Assembly (NCBI GenBank): GCA_964545825.1
Contig: CAZJGX010000001.1
Location: forward strand, 1 to 38,784
DNA length: 38,784 nucleotides
Direction: 5' to 3'
Source of the DNA: an uncultured Muribaculaceae bacterium
GTDB lineage: Bacteria > Pseudomonadota > Alphaproteobacteria > Rs-D84
The position numbers and the translations under genes are program-made. The notes under the pieces are model-generated. The model was not told the DNA's origin, did not search any database, and saw only the letters and a list, made by a program, of their open reading frames with translations. Positions 2,531 to 32,726 of this stretch are shown here, in pieces (the first letter of the stretch is position 1; every line of letters starts with the position of its first letter).

Positions 2531-3193
2531 ATGAAAATACTTAATAAAAAAATTGCGGCAAAAAAATCGTCTGTTGCATGGATTCAACGCCAGGCAAATG
2601 ACCCTTATGTTGCGCGGGCGCACAAAGATGGATATCGTGCGCGGGCGGCATATAAACTGATTGAAATGAACGAAAAATTTCGTTTCTTGAAAAATGGCCA
2701 GGTTGTGGTTGATTTGGGTGCGGCGCCGGGATCGTGGACGCAATACGTTATGCGTGAATTTCCGCGCAGCAAAGTTTTTGCAATGGATTTATTGGAAATA
2801 ACACCGATTCCAGGGGTTGAATTTTATCAGGGTGATTTTACAACAGATGCCGCATTGGATTGGCTGGTTCAGAAATTAAATTTGCCGGCGGACGCCGCAG
2901 AACATGGAACAGTTGATGTTGTTATGTCTGATATGGCGCCAAATACTGTGGGGCATAAAAAGACAGATCATATACGTCAGATGGTATTGTTGGAATATGC
3001 TTTTGATTTCGCATTGCGTGCATTAAAGCCGGGTGGGACATTTGTTGCAAAATCTTTTACCGGCGGCACGACAAACGAATTATTAAAACAAATCAAAGAA
3101 AAATTTGAATCTGTACATCATATGAAACCGCCGGCCTCGCGCAAGGATAGCGTAGAAATGTTTATTGTTGCGACCGGATTCAAAGGCAAATAA
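2531..3193 (+). CDS. rlmE: 23S rRNA (uridine2552-2'-O)-methyltransferase RlmE/FtsJ
   Basis: SSVAWIQRQANDPYV..A.KDGYRARAAYKL, SAM motif DLGAAPGSWTQY, DVVMSDMAPN. Confidence 0.9.
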   Translation: MKILNKKIAAKKSSVAWIQRQANDPYVARAHKDGYRARAAYKLIEMNEKFRFLKNGQVVVDLGAAPGSWTQYVMREFPRSKVFAMDLLEITPIPGVEFYQGDFTTDAALDWLVQKLNLPADAAEHGTVDVVMSDMAPNTVGHKKTDHIRQMVLLEYAFDFALRALKPGGTFVAKSFTGGTTNELLKQIKEKFESVHHMKPPASRKDSVEMFIVATGFKGK

Positions 3194-3725: not shown

Positions 3726-3993
3726 TTGTTTTTATTACTGCTGCATTATATAATTAAAATGTCAATAGGTATTCTGTTGACGGGGTGTGATGACCTCTGC
3801 CATAGCGTCGGGATATATACTCATGGCGCATATAATGCGCTGTTTTTTTTATTGCGACGAAACTATCTCCTGACCTGTGGTCAGGAGGGTTGTGAATATA
3901 TTGAATAAGCACACAATTCTATGGATTGTCATCAACCTCCTGGCCACTAAATTTTTGGTGGTTTTTTGTTTAACAAAATTAGGAGATTAGACA
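3726..3993 (+). promoter_or_regulatory. promoter + structured 5' leader, copy 1 of the repeated leader family
   Basis: -35 TTGTTT 3726-3731, 17-nt spacer, -10 TATAAT 3749-3754. 5' hairpin 3762-3780. GC hairpin 3826-3840 plus U tract. CTCCTGACC 3867-3875 / GGTCAGGAGGG 3879-3889 / CAACCTCCTGGCC 3933-3945. CCAC..GGTGG plus T6 at 3944-3967. AGGAG 3981-3985. ATG 3994. Confidence 0.8.
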
Positions 3994-4410
3994 ATGAAAA
4001 AAATATTGATTCCCGGCATTTTTATAACATGTATTGGTGTTGCCAGTGCGGCAACTGTAAAGTGTATTGCATTTAATACACAAACGGCATGCACTTATGA
4101 TAATCCTGGTGATTATGTAGATTTTACAGCCTATTGTGGTGGTATCACGGTCAGGGGGCTTGGCTATTGTTCAGAACAAAGTGGCAGCAGTGTCGGGTCT
4201 ACGACAATGGATTTGGAAAAGTCAAAAGGTATATATTGTTGGTGTCGTATGGTTTCGCCTGCATTATCCAATTGGGTATATTTGGAAAGTGCCATGGATA
4301 GTAGTCAGTGTGTGCATACGTGCAGCATAGATTGTGCGATTGCGTTGAATGATAGCAGGACGAAGGGTTCCAGTATGCGTCAAGGTATGTTTAATTCTGC
4401 CATTTATTAA
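3994..4410 (+). CDS. secreted cysteine-rich protein (138 aa)
   Basis: Signal peptide MKKILIPGIFITCIGVASA. Many Cys in the mature part. Preceded by leader copy 1 and an AGGAG RBS. Confidence 0.7.
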   Translation: MKKILIPGIFITCIGVASAATVKCIAFNTQTACTYDNPGDYVDFTAYCGGITVRGLGYCSEQSGSSVGSTTMDLEKSKGIYCWCRMVSPALSNWVYLESAMDSSQCVHTCSIDCAIALNDSRTKGSSMRQGMFNSAIY

Positions 4411-12464: not shown

Positions 12465-13034
12465 ATGAACGAAAAACGAGAAATTTTATTAGATAAACCA
12501 ATTGTTATGGTTGGGTTGATGGGGGCAGGAAAAACCAGTGTAGGGCGTGCGTTGGCACGTCGTTTGGGAATCCCGTTTGTTGATTCTGACAAGGAGATAG
12601 AAACGGCCGCCGGATGCAGTGTTGTTGATATTTTTGCAATGTATGGCGAACAGGAATTTCGTCGTGTAGAGCAACGTGTTATAAAACGGTTGTTGAATAC
12701 GCCGCCGAAACTAAAAGTTATTTCAACTGGAGAGGGTGCGTTTATTACACCTGCGGTGCGCGAAATGTTGCAGGGCAGGGCCTTGACAATTTGGTTAAAG
12801 GCTGAACTGGAACTGCTTGTTAAAAGAACAAATTTTCGTGATACGCGTCCACAGTTGCTGCATGCAGATAGTCGGAAAATTTTGGCCCAATTAATTGCAG
12901 AACGTTATGATACATATGCGTTGGCAGATGTGACGGTTGAAACGTTGGATGAAAGTTTGCGTAAAACATTGGGTAAGGTTGTAAATGCGATTGATGAACA
13001 TGTAAATAAAGGGGTAAAAAATGGCGAAAAGTAA
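12465..13034 (+). CDS. aroK: shikimate kinase
   Basis: Start at MNEKREILLDKPIVMVGLMGAGKTSVGRALA..GIPFVDSD..GE.EFR..E. Confidence 0.88.
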   Translation: MNEKREILLDKPIVMVGLMGAGKTSVGRALARRLGIPFVDSDKEIETAAGCSVVDIFAMYGEQEFRRVEQRVIKRLLNTPPKLKVISTGEGAFITPAVREMLQGRALTIWLKAELELLVKRTNFRDTRPQLLHADSRKILAQLIAERYDTYALADVTVETLDESLRKTLGKVVNAIDEHVNKGVKNGEK

Positions 13035-14212: not shown

Positions 14213-14926
14213 ATGAGTACAAGATTAGATCAAGAATTGGTTTCACGTGGATTGTATATCAGTCGTGCCAAGGCGGTAGCTGCGATAAAGGCCGGCTTGG
14301 TTCGTGTTAATGGTGTTGTTGCGACAAAGGCCAGTCTGGCTGTATCTGATACTGATATTATTGATGGTGCGGATTTGCCGTATGTTTCAGGACGTGGCAG
14401 TTTAAAGTTGGCGCATGCGTTAGATACGTTTCATGTTAATCCGGCGGGATATCAGTGTCTGGATGTTGGTGCCAGTACCGGTGGTTTTACCGAAGTCTTG
14501 TTGTCCCGTGGCGCGGCGCATGTTATTGCGGTGGATGTTGGTTCAAATCAATTGGTTGCCGAAATAAAAAATGATGCCAGGGTTATGTCAATGGAACAGA
14601 CGGATATTCGCACCCTGCCCCCGGTGTCCGGAATTGATTTGATAGTTATTGATGTTTCGTTCGTATCGCTGACCAATATTGCAGATGCGATTGCGGCATG
14701 GCGTTCGCCAGAGATAATTGCGCTGATAAAGCCTCAGTTTGAGGTATCACGTGAAATTGCCGCCCGTTTTAACGGCATTATTAAATCAGAACAATTGCAT
14801 CATGATGTAATTAATCGGGTTGAAAAATGTTTTTCAGCCTTGGGCTATGTATCGCGTGGCGTGATTGAATCGCCAATTCGTGGTGGCAGCGGTAATATTG
14901 AATATTTGGCCTATTTCGTTAAATAA
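14213..14926 (+). CDS. tlyA: TlyA-family 16S/23S rRNA (cytidine-2'-O)-methyltransferase
   Basis: Start at MSTRLDQELVSRGL (S4-like). RGSLKL. LDVGASTGGFTEVLL. IDVSFVSL. G..GNIEYL. Confidence 0.88.
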   Translation: MSTRLDQELVSRGLYISRAKAVAAIKAGLVRVNGVVATKASLAVSDTDIIDGADLPYVSGRGSLKLAHALDTFHVNPAGYQCLDVGASTGGFTEVLLSRGAAHVIAVDVGSNQLVAEIKNDARVMSMEQTDIRTLPPVSGIDLIVIDVSFVSLTNIADAIAAWRSPEIIALIKPQFEVSREIAARFNGIIKSEQLHHDVINRVEKCFSALGYVSRGVIESPIRGGSGNIEYLAYFVK

Positions 14927-14985
14927 AACGTTTTGTGAATTTGTTCTGGTTGAATATAGGTTTAAAAACATACATAATTACAACA

Positions 14986-15052
14986 GGTGGAGGTTCTAAA
15001 CTGTATACTGTGAGACAGCGTCGCTTATTCGACGTATTCACGACCCTCCACC
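14986..15052 (-). ncRNA. orphan copy of the core closing-stem / A+U-rich junction domain of the repeated leader family (no terminator, no downstream gene)
   Basis: RNA sense: GGTGGAGGGTCGTGAATACGTCGAATAAGCGACGCTGTCTCACAGTATACAGTTTAGAACCTCCACC. Collinear with GGTCAGGAGGGTTGTGAATATATTGAATAAGCACACAATTC..AACCTCCTGACC. Confidence 0.45.
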
Positions 15053-15299
15053 TACTTTTGCAGATGAGGGGTGTTTTTTGTCCCCGCGGACACACAGTAT
15101 TTGGGTTTAGCGCCCTTGGCGACAGGAAAAAAAGAACCTGTGCTTGTGCTGATATTTTAAACTAATTTTGGGATAAAAATCAAGTTCTTTTATTAATTGA
15201 TATGTGTTGTAATGTACAAATTGCTTGAATTTAGTGGTGTTGGTGTATAAAATTCAAATTATTTGAATTTAATTAAACAGCAGCCCGAGGTATATAACA

Positions 15300-17696
15300 A
15301 TGGCAGATAATATCGACAAAATTCATGCCCGCGAATCAAAATGGCAGAAAAAATGGCAAGAATCTAATGTCTTTACACCTAAAAATGATGGCGTAAAGCC
15401 GCCTTTTTATATGTTGGCGGAATTTCCATTTCCGTCGGGAACGGGGTTGCATGGCGGACATATGTTAAACTATACCGGGTGTGACGTTATGGCGCGTTTC
15501 ATGCGTATGCGTGGCTATGATGTGTTGTTTCCGTTGGGGTTTGATTCTTTGGGGATTTCAGCAGAAAATTATGCCACCAAAATTGGTCAGCATCCATCGA
15601 TTGTTGTGCGTGATTTGGCTAAAAAATTTACTAAAAATATGCTGGATATGGGTTGGTCTATTGATTTGAAATCCCAGGTGGCAACATCTGATCCAGAATT
15701 TATAAAGTGGACACAATGGATGTTTATTCAGTTCTTTAAGGCGGGTTTGGCATATAAGTCTATGTTGCCGATGAACTGGTGCCCGCATTGCCGTACGACG
15801 CTGACAAATGAAGAATTGGAAGATGGCAAGTGTAATCGTTGTCATGGCGATGTTGAAATCAAAGAAAAAATGCAATGGAATTTGGCGATTACAAAATATG
15901 CGCAGCGTATGTTGGATGATTTGGCGTTGGTTGATTATCCAGAAAAAGTTAAGCGTGACCAGATGAACTGGATTGGGCGTTCAACTGGCGCGGATATTGA
16001 TTTCCGTGTCGGTGATGATGTGATGACGGTTTATACCACACGTCCTGATACTATATTTGGTGCGACGTTCTGTGCAATTGCGCCGGAACATAAATTGGTG
16101 GCCAAGTGGCTGGATGATGGTCGTATTACAAACGCTGATGCGGTGCGGGATTATATTCGTGCGGCGGCGGCCAAATCTGAAATTGACCGAACAGATGTGA
16201 CCAAAGAGAAAACAGGTGTCCAATTAGAAGGCATTATGGCAACAAATCCATATACTGGTAAAGAAATTCCGATTTTTGTTGCGGACTATGTCTTGGCCAA
16301 TTATGCCCAGGGTACGATTATGGCGGTGCCCGCGCATGATGGGCGTGACTGGGATTTTGCCAAGAAATACAACCTGGAAATTATCCCGGTGTTGGCGGGT
16401 GGAACTGCGGACGCTGTATGGGAAGGTGATGGTGCACATATTAATTCAGGATTTATGGATGGTATGAGCAAGGCAGAAGCAATCACAGCCGCAATTGAAT
16501 TTGGTGAAAAAGGTGGCTTTGCACGTCCAAAGACACGTTTTCGTATGGGCGATTGGGGATTTTCGCGTCAGATGTACTGGGGTGAACCAATTCCGTTGGT
16601 ATATTGCGAAAAATGTGGTTGGGTGCCGGTTCCAGAATCTGAATTGCCGCTGATGCAGCCGTTCATGGCGGATTTTCGTCCAACCGAAGATGGGGAAAGC
16701 CCACTTGCACGTGCAACGGATTGGGTGAATACCACCTGCCCGCATTGTGGTGCGCCGGCGCGACGCGAGACTGATACTATGCCACAATGGGCGGGCTCGT
16801 CGTGGTACTATATGCGGTACCTGGATCCAAAAAATGATTCAGAGTTCTGTTCCCGTGAACAGATGGCGCGGTGGATGCCGGTTCATCACTATAATGGTGG
16901 TAATGAACATAATACACGCCATTTGATTTATTCGCGTTTTTGGCACAAGGCATTGTATGATTTGGGGTATGTGACCACGCCGGAGCCATACAAGAAAAGA
17001 ACGACCAATGGCTTGTTGATGGGTTCGGATGGCAAAAAGATGTCTAAATCTGCCGGAAACGGTTTTCAGGTTGATGAAAAAGTTGCCGAAGTTGGGGCCG
17101 ATGCTGCGCGTACAACGGTATTGTCGCTGGGGCCATGGGATTCAAATGTTAATTGGTCAGAAGGTGCATTGGCCGGTGTTCAGCGTTTCTTGAAACGTGT
17201 TGAAAATATGTCTGATAATTTGACAGATGCGGCCCTGACCGCCGAACAAGAAAGATTGATGCATCAATTAATTGCGGATGTGACAGAACGTATTGAGAAC
17301 ATGCGGTATAACACGGCGATTTCCGCGATGATGGAATATCTGAACGCGTTTGGTGGCACAATGCCCCGCCCTGCGTATGTGGCATTGATACAGTGTTTAA
17401 ATCCGTTTGCACCGCATTTGACCGAAGAAATATGGGAAAAATTGGGTAATATGGAAATGTTGGTACTGTCGTCGTGGCCGACATTTGATGCGTCAAAGTT
17501 GGTCAAGACATCAATGACGGTCGTTGTTGCAGTAAATGGGAAACGTGCGGCGGATTTTGTGGTGCCTGTGGATGCATCAGAATCCGATGTTGTTGATGCG
17601 GCCAAAAACGCGGCGGCAAAAAGGTTGGTTGACGCCCAAATTATAAAAACAATTGTTGTGCCTGGTAAGATGGTGAACTTTGTTGTAAAAAAGTAG
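15300..17696 (+). CDS. leuS: leucine--tRNA ligase
   Basis: FPFPSG.GLHGGH (HIGH-type), CP1 editing domain, KMSKS at ..GKKMSKSAGN. Confidence 0.95.
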   Translation: MADNIDKIHARESKWQKKWQESNVFTPKNDGVKPPFYMLAEFPFPSGTGLHGGHMLNYTGCDVMARFMRMRGYDVLFPLGFDSLGISAENYATKIGQHPSIVVRDLAKKFTKNMLDMGWSIDLKSQVATSDPEFIKWTQWMFIQFFKAGLAYKSMLPMNWCPHCRTTLTNEELEDGKCNRCHGDVEIKEKMQWNLAITKYAQRMLDDLALVDYPEKVKRDQMNWIGRSTGADIDFRVGDDVMTVYTTRPDTIFGATFCAIAPEHKLVAKWLDDGRITNADAVRDYIRAAAAKSEIDRTDVTKEKTGVQLEGIMATNPYTGKEIPIFVADYVLANYAQGTIMAVPAHDGRDWDFAKKYNLEIIPVLAGGTADAVWEGDGAHINSGFMDGMSKAEAITAAIEFGEKGGFARPKTRFRMGDWGFSRQMYWGEPIPLVYCEKCGWVPVPESELPLMQPFMADFRPTEDGESPLARATDWVNTTCPHCGAPARRETDTMPQWAGSSWYYMRYLDPKNDSEFCSREQMARWMPVHHYNGGNEHNTRHLIYSRFWHKALYDLGYVTTPEPYKKRTTNGLLMGSDGKKMSKSAGNGFQVDEKVAEVGADAARTTVLSLGPWDSNVNWSEGALAGVQRFLKRVENMSDNLTDAALTAEQERLMHQLIADVTERIENMRYNTAISAMMEYLNAFGGTMPRPAYVALIQCLNPFAPHLTEEIWEKLGNMEMLVLSSWPTFDASKLVKTSMTVVVAVNGKRAADFVVPVDASESDVVDAAKNAAAKRLVDAQIIKTIVVPGKMVNFVVKK

Positions 17697-17743: not shown

Positions 17744-18011
17744 TTGTGTTTTATTTCGGTTGGCGGTATAATCATATTGTTCGTGGGTGTTCCATGAACG
17801 GGGTGTGAGAACCCGGCATAGGCGTCGGAATATGTTCTTGTGGCGTATGATTTGCGCTGTTTTTACTATTGCGACGGAAACAAACTCCTGGCGTTGGTCA
17901 GGAGGGTCGTGAAATATCAAAATAAGCGCACAATTCCTATGATTGTTCTCAACCTCCTGGCCCACCATTTATCGGTGGTTTTTTGTTTGTGATAAATAAC
18001 AGGAGTTTGAA
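17744..18011 (+). promoter_or_regulatory. promoter + structured 5' leader, copy 2
   Basis: -35 TTGTGT 17744-17749, 17 nt, -10 TATAAT 17767-17772. Hairpin GTTCGTGG/CCATGAAC 17779-17799. GGTCAGGAGGG 17896-17906. CAACCTCCTGGCC 17950-17962. CCACC..GGTGG plus T6 ending at 17984. AGGAG 18001-18005. Confidence 0.8.
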
Positions 18012-18539
18012 ATGAATATAAAATCGTTAATTTTTGTTGGGTTTGTGTTATGTGTTCTGGGCAATGCGGCACATGCCGCGGTTATTACTACAAGGTCATG
18101 TTGGTTGGAAAACGCGAATTGTTGTAAATCAAAGGACACTTATTGTTCCGATACACTATGTATGCCTGGCGGAAAGGGAACTTTGTGTCCAACAGAAGGC
18201 GAGACATCTTGTACTTTGCCATTTCAGTTGCAGTGCCAATCGGCTACATATGACGGTTTTAATGGGTATGTTTTGTGTTATGATGTCAGATGCCCTGTTG
18301 AATCGGCTCAATGGTGGTGTGCTGATGGTTTTTATTCCGATGGGGTGTTGGAAACGGATGAAAATGGCAATGAGATTCCGGATTGTTATGAGTGTGATAC
18401 AGCAGGATTGGATAATACACCGGCCAAATCCGATAAAACAGTAAAAGGGGTGGAAGCCTGTTATATACCGGCGGGGGAAATGGTACGTGATAGGTACGGA
18501 AAATATAAATATACAGCCGATTGTCACTATAAATGGTAA
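18012..18539 (+). CDS. secreted cysteine-rich protein (175 aa)
   Basis: Signal peptide ..FVLCVLGNAAHA. 15 Cys in the mature part (hand count). C-terminal ..ACYIPAGE..YKYTADCHYKW. Confidence 0.7.
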   Translation: MNIKSLIFVGFVLCVLGNAAHAAVITTRSCWLENANCCKSKDTYCSDTLCMPGGKGTLCPTEGETSCTLPFQLQCQSATYDGFNGYVLCYDVRCPVESAQWWCADGFYSDGVLETDENGNEIPDCYECDTAGLDNTPAKSDKTVKGVEACYIPAGEMVRDRYGKYKYTADCHYKW

Positions 18540-18566: not shown

Positions 18567-19362
18567 ACTGTTGATAAAAGCATTCATCGGTTAGAAAAAA
18601 TGTGCCGGTTGTATCTATGAAGGCTTCTTCGTAATAACTGCTTAAACCATCGATATAGCATTCTGTGATACTGGTGGCACCGTCGCTATATGTTTCGCCC
18701 CGTACAGCGGTACCGTTGTGGGCCAATGTGCCCAGGTGGCCGGCGTCACTGTCGGGGCATTCCGTGCATGTGGTGCCGTTTTTGTAATACATATATTTGC
18801 ATATAAATGTTGTTGTGCCGGTGCCACCGTTACATGTTGCGTTTGCCGGGCATGTGATGCATCCGCTGGATGGATTGCCATAGTATCCGGATTTGCATCG
18901 ATATTGTGATGTGGCGGTTTCACCACTGCGTACGTTGCATTTGCCTTGCATTTGGTATGTGTATGTATAATAACGTTCGCGTCCATTGCCGACATCCTGC
19001 CAGCCGCCGTCCGGTGTTGTTTCGCATGCGCAACCGAACTCTGGGCCGCTGGTCATGACATAAACATTATAGCCAATTCTTTCGCATAATGATTCGCAGT
19101 ATGCATATGGTTGACTTGCAGAGTATCCTGTATCTGTGAAATCTTCGCATTTCCCCAGTTCGGCGCGCCAGCAAAAATGTTCTTCTGCTTTGGCGGCGCA
19201 TTGGGTGTCGGTTATATTTGTAAGACTGCCGCCTATAATATAATAGTTAGTGTATGGGCAAACGGTGCCAGTGCATTTGTCCATGATTTGTACTGTTCCT
19301 GATGCGGAATTGGTTATGGCCATGGCAAGTGCCATTGCGGTTAATAATAAATGTTGTTTCAT
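18565..19362 (-). CDS. secreted cysteine-rich protein (265 aa) with CxxGYYG..C..CP-type repeats
   Basis: Start at MKQHLLLTAMALAMAITNSASG. YRCKSGYYGNPSSGCITCPANATCNGG. C-terminal ..ATSITECYIDG..ECFY. Confidence 0.7.
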   Translation of the reverse strand: MKQHLLLTAMALAMAITNSASGTVQIMDKCTGTVCPYTNYYIIGGSLTNITDTQCAAKAEEHFCWRAELGKCEDFTDTGYSASQPYAYCESLCERIGYNVYVMTSGPEFGCACETTPDGGWQDVGNGRERYYTYTYQMQGKCNVRSGETATSQYRCKSGYYGNPSSGCITCPANATCNGGTGTTTFICKYMYYKNGTTCTECPDSDAGHLGTLAHNGTAVRGETYSDGATSITECYIDGLSSYYEEAFIDTTGTFFLTDECFYQQ

Positions 19363-19626
19363 TTGTTCGTTTCTCCTGTGTTTTTCGTAATGAAAAACCA
19401 CCAAATTTTGGTGGTCAGGAGGTTGAGAACAATCCTTAGATTTGTGCCGCTTATTTTTATATATCGCAGCCCTCCTGACCGCTTTGGGCCCAGGAGTTTT
19501 TTCGTCGTATTAAAAAAGGCGCATTGCGCCAATCAATTCCTGACGCTAAGGCAGAGGTTCTCACACCTCATCAACGGAACACCCGTTGACAGTAATAATT
19601 ATATAATGCATGGCATGGAAACACAA
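19363..19626 (-). promoter_or_regulatory. promoter + structured 5' leader, copy 3
   Basis: Minus strand: -35 TTGTGT 19621-19626, 17 nt, -10 TATAAT 19598-19603. GTCAACGG/CCGTTGAT hairpin. GGCGC-AAT-GCGCC plus U6. CTCCTGG../GGTCAGGAGGG (19470-19480)/CTCAACCTCCTGACC (19413-19427). CCACC/GGTGG 19398-19414 plus U run. Confidence 0.8.
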
Positions 19627-20773: not shown

Positions 20774-21589
20774 TTATGCCCCCGTGCCACTACCTGTACC
20801 AGTAGTAGCGCATCCTGTATCATTTTCTGTAATGGCCAGTGTACTGGAATAAGAACAGTGTCTATTTGCCAACATATATTTGCCGACACAATCGTTATAT
20901 GTTTGTCCAGAAGAAGATGTCGCACCTGATTCATATACATAACAGTTTGTGATACCGGTGCCAGCTGTTGAACCAAAACAATATCCTGAAACACACATAT
21001 TGTCCGCATTGCCGGCGTATATTCCTGTTGGAAATGCGGCTAAGCCTTCGTTAAAGCGCCCGCGCCCCGGACATAGTATACAACAACCTGTAAACGCGTT
21101 GAGGTCGGTACCGCTATTGATTGCATCACATGGCGATGTGGACTTTGTTTGATATGCGCCATTTAGACATCCACTAAATTTGAAAATACTCAGGCTGCCA
21201 ATTTGGCCTGATGTTTTGTTTAATACCATAGAACTTGCACCTGCAAGCATGTCTTTCTCGCATTTCAGACCTGTGCCGTCACAGGAAGAGTATGTGCCAC
21301 ATGGCGTCTGTTTTCCATCCCAACACGAACACCAGCGGCACAATGCTTCGGTCGCCGTGCCTGTTGCACATGTGTATTTGTTGTTCCCGTCTTTAAATTG
21401 ATTGCAATAACTTCCTTGTAATGCTGCATCATTAAAAACATATAGATATCCGCCGGTACCACCGTTTGCTGTATAAGAAAGAACGGTATAGCCTGCTGTG
21501 TGTGTATAGTCACTTTTTGCATCGCGCATGCCTATTGCGCCGAACACCGCCATACATGTTCCCAGAATTCGAATAGTTGTACGTTTCAT
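20774..21589 (-). CDS. secreted cysteine-, Gly/Thr/Ser-rich protein (271 aa)
   Basis: Start at MKRTTIRILGTCMAVFGAIGM. Many Cys. ..GITNCYVYESG... C-terminal GCATTGTGSGTGA tail. Confidence 0.7.
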   Translation of the reverse strand: MKRTTIRILGTCMAVFGAIGMRDAKSDYTHTAGYTVLSYTANGGTGGYLYVFNDAALQGSYCNQFKDGNNKYTCATGTATEALCRWCSCWDGKQTPCGTYSSCDGTGLKCEKDMLAGASSMVLNKTSGQIGSLSIFKFSGCLNGAYQTKSTSPCDAINSGTDLNAFTGCCILCPGRGRFNEGLAAFPTGIYAGNADNMCVSGYCFGSTAGTGITNCYVYESGATSSSGQTYNDCVGKYMLANRHCSYSSTLAITENDTGCATTGTGSGTGA

Positions 21590-21859
21590 TTTGTTTGATC
21601 TCCTGTCTTTTTCGAAATGAAAAACCACCCAAAATCAAGGTGGTCAGGAGGTTCAGAACAATCTCAAGAATTGTGTGCTTATTCAATATATTCACAACCC
21701 TCCTGACCATCGGTCAGGAGATTATTATCATCAGAATAAAAAATAGCGCGTTTACGCGCCACAAGATTATATTCCGACGCTTGAGCACGGGTTCTGACAC
21801 CCCATTGACGGAACTCCCGTCAACATTGTTATTATATAATATCATGGGAATTAATACAA
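21590..21859 (-). promoter_or_regulatory. promoter + structured 5' leader, copy 4
   Basis: Minus strand: -35 TTGTAT 21854-21859, 17 nt, -10 TATAAT 21831-21836. GTTGACGG/CCGTCAAT hairpin 21804-21824. GCGCG-TAAA-CGCGC 21746-21759 plus U tract. A 42-nt block at 21667-21708 is identical to 3879-3920. CCACC..GGTGG plus U run. AGGAG. Confidence 0.8.
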
Positions 21860-32487: not shown

Positions 32488-32726
32488 AAATCCCCCTATT
32501 CTGCATATGCAAAAACCACCTATGCGTGGTGGTTGGAGGTTCGTTACAATTTTGCTTAAATTGTGCTGTTTATTCGATATATTCACAGGCCCTCCAACCG
32601 CTTCTGATTGGAGATATTTAACGTCGCGCCATTTATGGCGTGGACGAAGCTAAAAGAGGTAACGACACCCCTGTATGATGCATTTCATACATTGCTATTT
32701 TATATTAAAACAGTATTCGTTAGCAA
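32488..32726 (-). promoter_or_regulatory. promoter + structured 5' leader, copy 5 (most divergent, compensatory changes)
   Basis: Minus strand: -35 TTGCTA 32721-32726, 16 nt, -10 TATAAA 32699-32704. GTATGA/TCATAC hairpin. CGCCA-TAAA-TGGCG. CTCCAATC (32606-32613) / GGTTGGAGGG (32590-32599) / CCTCCAACC (32531-32539). CCACC/GGTGG 32516-32532 plus U5. Confidence 0.75.

Follow-up and report, generated by a model that had tools for sequence, protein, structure and literature searches.

The spacer between tlyA and leuS examined here lies in a 38,784-nt stretch of DNA (the window), which is one whole contig of an assembly of 0.94 Mb in 124 contigs (G000; 43% GC, 89% complete). The genus is Candidatus Enterousia, an alphaproteobacterium of the gut whose genome is reduced. 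It has been placed in the order Rs-D84 (PMC12306168). The minus strand of the spacer carries a structured leader RNA that has no gene of its own and which we refer to as the orphan leader (Table 1). The position of the leuS promoter-like site, a block partly conserved in the closest species (G134), puts the orphan leader outside the leuS 5′ UTR. Most Enterousia genomes have a gap of 77-113 nt between tlyA and leuS, and the 373-nt spacer of G000 is therefore derived. One Logan contig, found via an identical-protein look-up, is identical to the window and has the same tlyA-orphan junction; being an independent assembly, it excludes a binning artefact and adds no diversity.

In 80 related genomes, the region upstream of leuS (loci L017-L096) appears as a hot spot for opposite-strand cassettes in the tlyA-leuS spacer. 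A cluster of a GT8-like gene, a GT2 gene and a signal-anchored Cys-rich gene is found in spacer loci L019, L063, L051, L052, L090 and L017, locus L043 has an intact class I leader with a gene for a 751-aa secreted protein, and other spacers hold small genes of about 100-160 aa.

Table 1. Features of the tlyA-leuS region (window coordinates; minus-strand elements of the orphan leader run from high to low numbers)
Feature	Position	Strand	Description
tlyA	14213..14926	+	rRNA methyltransferase; ORF list, Pfam S4 and FtsJ domains on the identical protein; convergent with the orphan leader
3′ tail	14927..14984	-	U-rich, G-poor; unpaired in the fold; enters the 3′ end of convergent tlyA
Three-way-junction core	14985..15053	-	covariance model R1, full length, all pairs canonical
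P1	15052-15045 with 14993-14986	-	GGTGGAGG/CCTCCACC
P2	15044-15040 with 15024-15020	-	GTCGT/GCGAC
L2	15039-15025	-	GAATACGTCGAATAA; family motif GAATA...GAATAAG
P3	15019-15015 with 15004-15000	-	GCTGT/ACAGT
P3 loop	15014-15005	-	
J3/1	14999-14994	-	
P0 competitor hairpin	15043..15072	-	5′ strand 15072-15060, loop AAAA 15059-15056, 3′ strand 15055-15043
Hairpin C	15080..15091	-	GTCC-GCGG-GGAC; common to leaders C118, C22, C61 and L099-L115
PK1 5′ strand	15093..15100	-	ATACTGTG; pairs over all 8 bp with CACAGTAT (15012-15005) of the P3 loop
Hairpin B	15103..15115	-	GGG-CGCTAAA-CCC; loop CTAAAC (15110-15105) is the PK2 5′ strand
Hairpin A	15119..15143	-	GCACAGG / CCTGT-GC; in the minimum-free-energy fold, at the position of the canonical leaders' first hairpin
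Promoter-like site	15154..15183	-	sigma-70-like; TTGATT (15183-15178), 18-nt spacer, TAAAAT (15159-15154); predicted start near 15147
leuS promoter-like site	15225..15253	+	TTGAAT-17-TAAAAT; back to back with the orphan leader's promoter
leuS	15300-17696	+	

An abundant leader family in Enterousia

Genome-wide, about 47 class I leader cores are detected by a core HMM. The cores of the five gene-linked leaders in the window are at 3880-3944 (+), 17897-17961 (+), 19414-19479 (-), 21643-21707 (-) and 32531-32599 (-). The fold was evaluated in an alignment (A2) of 43 class I cores of the same genome, from which the orphan was left out and for which P1 (9 bp), P2 (5 bp) and P3 (5 bp) were specified. 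RNAalifold on a MAFFT alignment had recovered P1 alone; P2 and P3 were specified by hand and then verified in A2, where 94.4% of cells are in standard pairs, as against 28-50% after the partner columns are slid, and double changes occur at 12 of the 19 pairs. A covariance model (R1) built from A2 and run unfiltered over the whole window gives the five window leaders scores of 65-77 bits.

In the hairpin C subfamily, two pseudoknots, each covarying from leader to leader, link this core to upstream sequence. PK1 pairs a strand of 8-9 nt just 5′ of hairpin C with the P3 loop; leaders of the hairpin C subfamily form 8-9 bp with their own partner in 20 of 20 cases, the sequences differing, and non-self combinations average 4.3 bp. 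PK2 pairs the loop of hairpin B with the 3′ end of P3 and J3/1, with at least 7 bp to the own partner in all 12 leaders tested and in 9.5% of non-self combinations. Nine intact leaders have a competitor hairpin, P0, of -11.2 to -16.2 kcal/mol. In the platform of canonical leaders, the 5′ strand of an intrinsic terminator overlaps the 3′ strand of P1 and is followed by a U tract, the Shine-Dalgarno site is complementary to the P1 strands, and an ORF begins within about 40-95 nt. A scan for hairpins followed by T runs finds a clear terminator hairpin of 5-12 bp in most other class I copies, and 6 of the 47 copies have no ORF directly downstream.

The Enterousia family of pseudoknotted leaders is undescribed and very abundant, with about 47 class I copies in this 0.94-Mb genome. 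Over the whole window, tRNAs alone reach the gathering threshold in Rfam 15, in which the leader family has no entry; the best Rfam 15 match in 14800-15400, IS128, reaches 13.5 bits where the threshold is 80. A DUF3800-I match on a canonical leader (Rfam, 16 bits) was dismissed as noise. Among the matches listed by a full-text literature search with the genus name, no title concerns RNA regulation, and PMC12306168 mentions neither riboswitches nor non-coding RNA.

Several features of the family were noted in passing. Across leaders, changes in the cargo gene's Shine-Dalgarno region go together with changes in the strands of P1 and P0, CAGGAG occurring with CTCCTG leaders and TGGAG or GGAGG with CTCCA leaders (window 3975-3995, 17995-18012, 19362-19385 (-) and 21588-21610 (-), and many other loci), a pattern of letters that suggests translational sequestration on top of termination. 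Beyond Cys-rich secreted proteins, several cargo proteins of 72-97 aa resemble, by eye, helix-turn-helix regulators, and in two relatives (L103 and L104) the N-terminus of the cargo resembles, also by eye, a methylase subunit of a type I restriction-modification system. A second class of leader core is present on contigs of G000 at C18:14082-14166, C39:2779-2865, C67:669-752, C77:3157-3241 and C96:2474-2558; it has a P1 of GGTCGGGG/CCCCGACC, a different junction (GTTATAnAACAGG ... CCnAAAG ...), and precedes genes for secreted proteins.

Leaders that lack a gene or stand in tandem were also seen elsewhere in the genome. At C15:~12830-12910 (-) and C7:~2750-2830 (-), two ORF-less class I leaders have terminators and share, downstream, a conserved long hairpin of about 75 nt (GCTGGTTGGGG..ATGCCGAATATACCAAATACGCATAGCATTTTAACG..CCCCTAACC) of which the genome has these two copies only; it may be a leader-controlled non-coding RNA. 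Two other ORF-less leaders, at C55:1470-1533 and C16:6415-6483, have terminators followed by a common motif, AATCTATCTCCACA, and then by convergent genes; the motif is located at C55:1424 and 1793 (-) and C16:6342 (-), one of the C55 copies being a third. Tandem leader modules occur on C33 and C15. On C33 (8280-8630 (-)), two class I modules, each with a promoter-like region, stand ahead of one 91-aa gene; their P2, L2 and P3 are near-identical and their P1 strands different.

The orphan leader

The first-pass annotation of this DNA had placed a 67-nt string, collinear with the five leader cores, at 14986-15052 of the minus strand, and alignment bears out both the placement and the collinearity. 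R1 matches the orphan over model positions 1-67 of 67 with 56.3 bits (E 2e-13) and zero non-canonical pairs, against 10.4 bits for the opposite strand and 9.2 bits for the best unrelated match in 77 kb of searched strand; the resemblance to the family is thus far beyond chance and strand-specific. A sequence-only core HMM also detects it (E 1.4e-7), and a sequence HMM from four long leaders nearly missed it (E 0.23). The loop consensus that had been reported as retained is indeed the L2 motif of the family. The stems had been described as changed yet still paired. P3 has a G-C pair where 43 of 43 paralogues have A-U; the GTCG/CGAC of P2 is no new covariation, since paralogues on C15, C14 and C69 have this stem too. 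P1, at 8 bp, is one base pair shorter on both strands than the 9-bp GGTTGGAGG/CCTCCAACC.

The annotation had taken the orphan for a copy of the core only. It is instead a whole leader, which extends from the promoter to P1 and includes hairpins A, B and C, both pseudoknot pairings and the competitor hairpin. The promoter-like site is at the family's usual distance. The upstream part matches the hairpin C subfamily (GTCC-GYGG-GGAC: C118, C22, C61, L099-L115), and hairpin C itself is what had been read as a flanking GGGG..CCCC hairpin. In PK2, the loop of hairpin B pairs with GTTTAG (15001-14996), a long-range helix also seen in folds; it has 6 bp, against 7 bp in G134 and 7 bp or more in the 12 tested leaders, because a T in the hairpin B loop has become G in G000 only. 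The upstream competitor strand was said to be lacking, and a reading of it as degenerate was overturned by folding: P0 is present with 12 pairs and one C-A mismatch, its 3′ strand includes the entire 5′ strand of P1, and its -15.9 kcal/mol is within the canonical range of -11 to -16.

What is missing is the platform, of which the annotation had correctly noted the absent terminator and ORF. No terminator-like site is found on either strand in 14800-15400, no ORF preceded by a Shine-Dalgarno site follows the orphan, and only 59 nt are left after P1 before the stop codon of tlyA, which is convergent. The orphan is the sole member of the six ORF-less copies that is also without a terminator.

Conservation in the sister species

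The closest species, G134 (CAMWQN01), has a LeuS 89% identical to that of G000 and an orthologue of the orphan leader that scores 53.5 bits with the covariance model. A search of the genus (257 genomes) yielded this orthologue and intact relatives, so that the proposed conservation in related genomes is confirmed in one species and found in no other of the 257. An exact 27-mer search of genome contigs matched G134 only, and the exact 27-mer gave no match in metagenome contigs; the 17 matches of an 18-mer search were all chance, and none matched the covariance model.

The two cores are identical at 65 of 69 positions, and upstream, from the loop of hairpin B through hairpin C to the linker, a 42-nt run is identical without interruption. 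Hairpin A of G134 has the same ACAGG/CCTGT pairing with a different loop. The P0 region is 72% identical, with indels, and the hairpin is kept (-14.7 kcal/mol in G134), its apical part differing between the species yet staying paired. G134 has a promoter, TTGATT-18-TATTAT, at the equivalent place in surroundings that are only about 50% identical. Whereas the RNA part is 94-100% identical, all flanks are at 44-55% and the four-fold degenerate sites of leuS at 48% (151/314). As these sites are saturated, the orphan RNA has been under purifying selection; the orphan leader is real, intact and was constrained in the past. Positions at which the cores differ internally are also variable across the family, and with intact relatives as outgroup (L138, L099-L101), the differences split about evenly between both lineages, which indicates no excess change in G000. 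Neither species has a terminator after P1, and the terminator-less state is therefore older than their split.

The setting differs in G134. On one strand, between tlyA and leuS, lie the element, a 250-nt spacer, a second promoter (TTGATT-18-TATCAT), a degenerate leader module, a gene for a Cys-rich secreted protein of 237 aa (gene X), and GT2 and GT8 genes; tlyA is 3.1 kb from the element. The same gene cluster occupies the tlyA-leuS site without leaders in several other species, and no orthologues of it are found in the 89% complete assembly of G000. The most parsimonious account is a deletion of the cluster in G000 that spared the unit from promoter to P1. A deletion junction could not be read, since the 59-nt tail has no significant similarity to G134 DNA, its best local match being equalled by 14 of 300 shuffles.

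The degenerate module of G134 (L017:2300-2600 (-)) has the PK1 strand of the element, ATACTGTG, along with hairpins A and B, and CACAGTAT follows downstream; its L2 motif is lost. From its letters it looks like a tandem duplication that has since diverged.

Function and related systems

An orphan leader that is nearly unchanged in the sister species is either a stand-alone regulatory RNA or a leader that was stranded very recently; the annotation had raised both a free-standing sRNA and a relic. We suggest, tentatively and with a little less than an even chance of being right, that it is a still-functional stand-alone non-coding RNA. Such an RNA would have kept the promoter, the full sensing fold (hairpins A-C, P1-P2-P3, PK1 and PK2) and the alternative pairing of P0 and P1, and would have lost the expression platform (the Shine-Dalgarno site and the terminator that overlaps the 3′ strand of P1) together with its cargo gene. 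The terminator-less, gene-less state would predate the split from G134 and would then have been held by purifying selection. We infer independent transcription into a non-coding RNA of about 165 nt with an untranslated tail, which would fold and answer the same signal as the approximately 47 gene-linked leaders. Lacking an intrinsic terminator, such an RNA would have to act by one of two routes. In the first, the RNA would mimic the leaders and compete in trans for a common factor or ligand. In the second, the signal would determine the exposure of the C-rich, G-poor 3′ strand of P1 and the tail, and so set the reach of the untranslated transcript; termination could be Rho-dependent and, in G000, would govern antisense transcription over the 3′ end of tlyA.

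Several observations are consistent with a stand-alone RNA. Both species have a promoter of the form TTGATT-18-TAnnAT, the G134 element is set apart from the downstream gene by a second promoter, the deletion in G000 left the unit from promoter to P1 exactly intact, and ORF-less copies of the leader recur (6 of 47). The rho gene is present in 20 of 20 relatives; the Rho RNA-binding domain was not found in G000 (89% complete), which is most likely an assembly gap. Other observations point the other way: the element is carried by two genomes only, PK2 is shortened from 7 to 6 bp in G000, and the G134 element is co-oriented with a Cys-rich gene, the typical cargo, with no terminator between them. 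What was conserved could thus have been a function in cis, in which case the copy in G000 may have been stranded recently. As to the first route, one extra copy among about 48 makes a weak sponge, and none of the other G000 leaders contains the PK1 strand. The single further occurrence of GGTGGAGG in G000, at the Shine-Dalgarno site of rplA, was judged to be chance; complements of PK1 and P1 elsewhere in the genome come down to chance or to the rplA site, and no trans target was found. The orphan is conserved between a genome without the cargo and one with it; that its riboswitch-like sensing domain has been released from the gene, and as a signal-responsive, trans-acting leader mimic tunes a regulon of some 50 identical leader switches of variable secreted and surface proteins in a gut symbiont with a tiny genome, is an unlikely extension.

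The main alternative, which we consider a serious possibility while inclining against it, is a freshly orphaned relic: the element would have been the upstream module of a tandem leader, acting in cis by regulated read-through on gene X and the two glycosyltransferase genes, and G000 would have lost this cluster too recently for the remaining leader to have decayed. The layout of G134, with the element upstream of and co-oriented with the Cys-rich gene cluster, fits this history, as do the absence of a cluster orthologue from G000 and the tandem modules on C33 and C15. Retention of P0 is what a co-transcriptional, cis-acting decision would call for, one PK2 pair is already gone, and with about 50 fast-turning cassettes per genome, one fresh relic is not unlikely. 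Against it, the approximately 100 constrained positions hold at most one or two G000-derived changes at a Jukes-Cantor distance of about 0.9 (from the four-fold sites, 48%), which by our estimate leaves room for neutral evolution during only about the final 2-7% of the branch; the promoter, P0 and the two pseudoknots remain whole, and in G134 the gene's own promoter sits between element and gene.

A special case of the stand-alone RNA is a static decoy, or sponge, locked in the closed P1 form and titrating the factor that controls the leaders. The complete, conserved binding fold and the lack of an effector part, which recalls the relation of GlmY to GlmZ, would suit such a role. We think it quite improbable, however, since the competitor hairpin is as strong as those of regulated leaders and conserved in both species with compensating changes: its retention implies that the orphan is still a two-state switch and not a static binding domain. 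Moreover, the decoy would be a single site beside about 47 others, the domain would already be plentiful in terminated leader transcripts, and titration is implausible if the signal is a small molecule.

A constraint on the plus strand or on the DNA itself, a protein-coding role and chance together carry only a small share of the probability. For the first, a terminator or insulator of tlyA or a part of leuS control, one can point to the P1 inverted repeat, which forms on the plus strand too, after the tlyA stop codon and followed by TACTTTTG, and to the 77-113 nt that separate the two genes in most relatives; it is nevertheless very improbable, as the plus strand reaches 10.4 bits against 56.3, has no terminator-like site and has the leuS promoter downstream of the element, and as the element is still conserved in G134, where tlyA is 3.1 kb distant and gene X diverges from this side. 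A small protein, encoded by a 58-codon GTG frame (15095-14919 (-)) or a 76-codon plus-strand frame, was rejected as exceedingly improbable: although G134 also has the minus-strand frame open, over 41 codons, and the indel in P0 measures 3 nt, this frame starts with GTG and has no Shine-Dalgarno site, its non-synonymous changes (T to M, S to P) fall exactly where the RNA may vary, paralogous cores differ in length by non-multiples of three, and conservation tracks helices and pseudoknots, not codons.

If the stand-alone RNA is the correct reading, a terminator-less, gene-less copy kept by selection would hint, more directly than any other genomic observation, at a function of the sensing fold apart from cis control, and the orphan would be a natural minimal construct (promoter, sensor and switch in about 165 nt) useful for finding the ligand or protein of the regulon. 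If it is a recent relic, it still identifies the spacer between tlyA and leuS as a hot spot where cassettes come and go, and provides a dated example of cassette loss.

With its own family the orphan shares the promoter position, hairpins A-C, PK1, PK2, the P0/P1 pairing, the junction, the L2 motif and J3/1; it differs in having no intrinsic terminator, no Shine-Dalgarno site complementary to P1 and no ORF, as well as in the shorter P1 (8 against 9 bp), the G-C pair in P3 (A-U in the 43 paralogues) and the internal mismatch of P0. Among characterised systems, GlmY and GlmZ of enterobacteria are homologous small RNAs, of which GlmY is a decoy for the adaptor protein RapZ. The likeness lies in a paralogue that has the common protein-binding fold without the effector part, so that mimicry is possible; unlike GlmY, the orphan keeps a switchable competitor hairpin, and it stands alone against about 47 paralogues where GlmY faces a single GlmZ. 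SreA and SreB of Listeria and EutX/Rli55 are trans-acting RNAs derived from or controlled by riboswitches, EutX/Rli55 sequestering the ANTAR protein EutV. In the orphan, too, a sensing leader would yield a non-coding transcript that has its own role, but those transcripts end at the riboswitch terminator or carry defined binding sites, whereas the orphan is terminator-less. The leaders of mgtA (Mg2+) and ribB (FMN) reportedly act via Rho-dependent termination, in work from 2012 by Hollands et al. They resemble the orphan as sensors with alternative pairing, no intrinsic terminator and a C-rich, G-poor untranslated tail, in a genus that has rho; in G000, by contrast, no gene follows the leader, and rho was not found in the 89% complete assembly.
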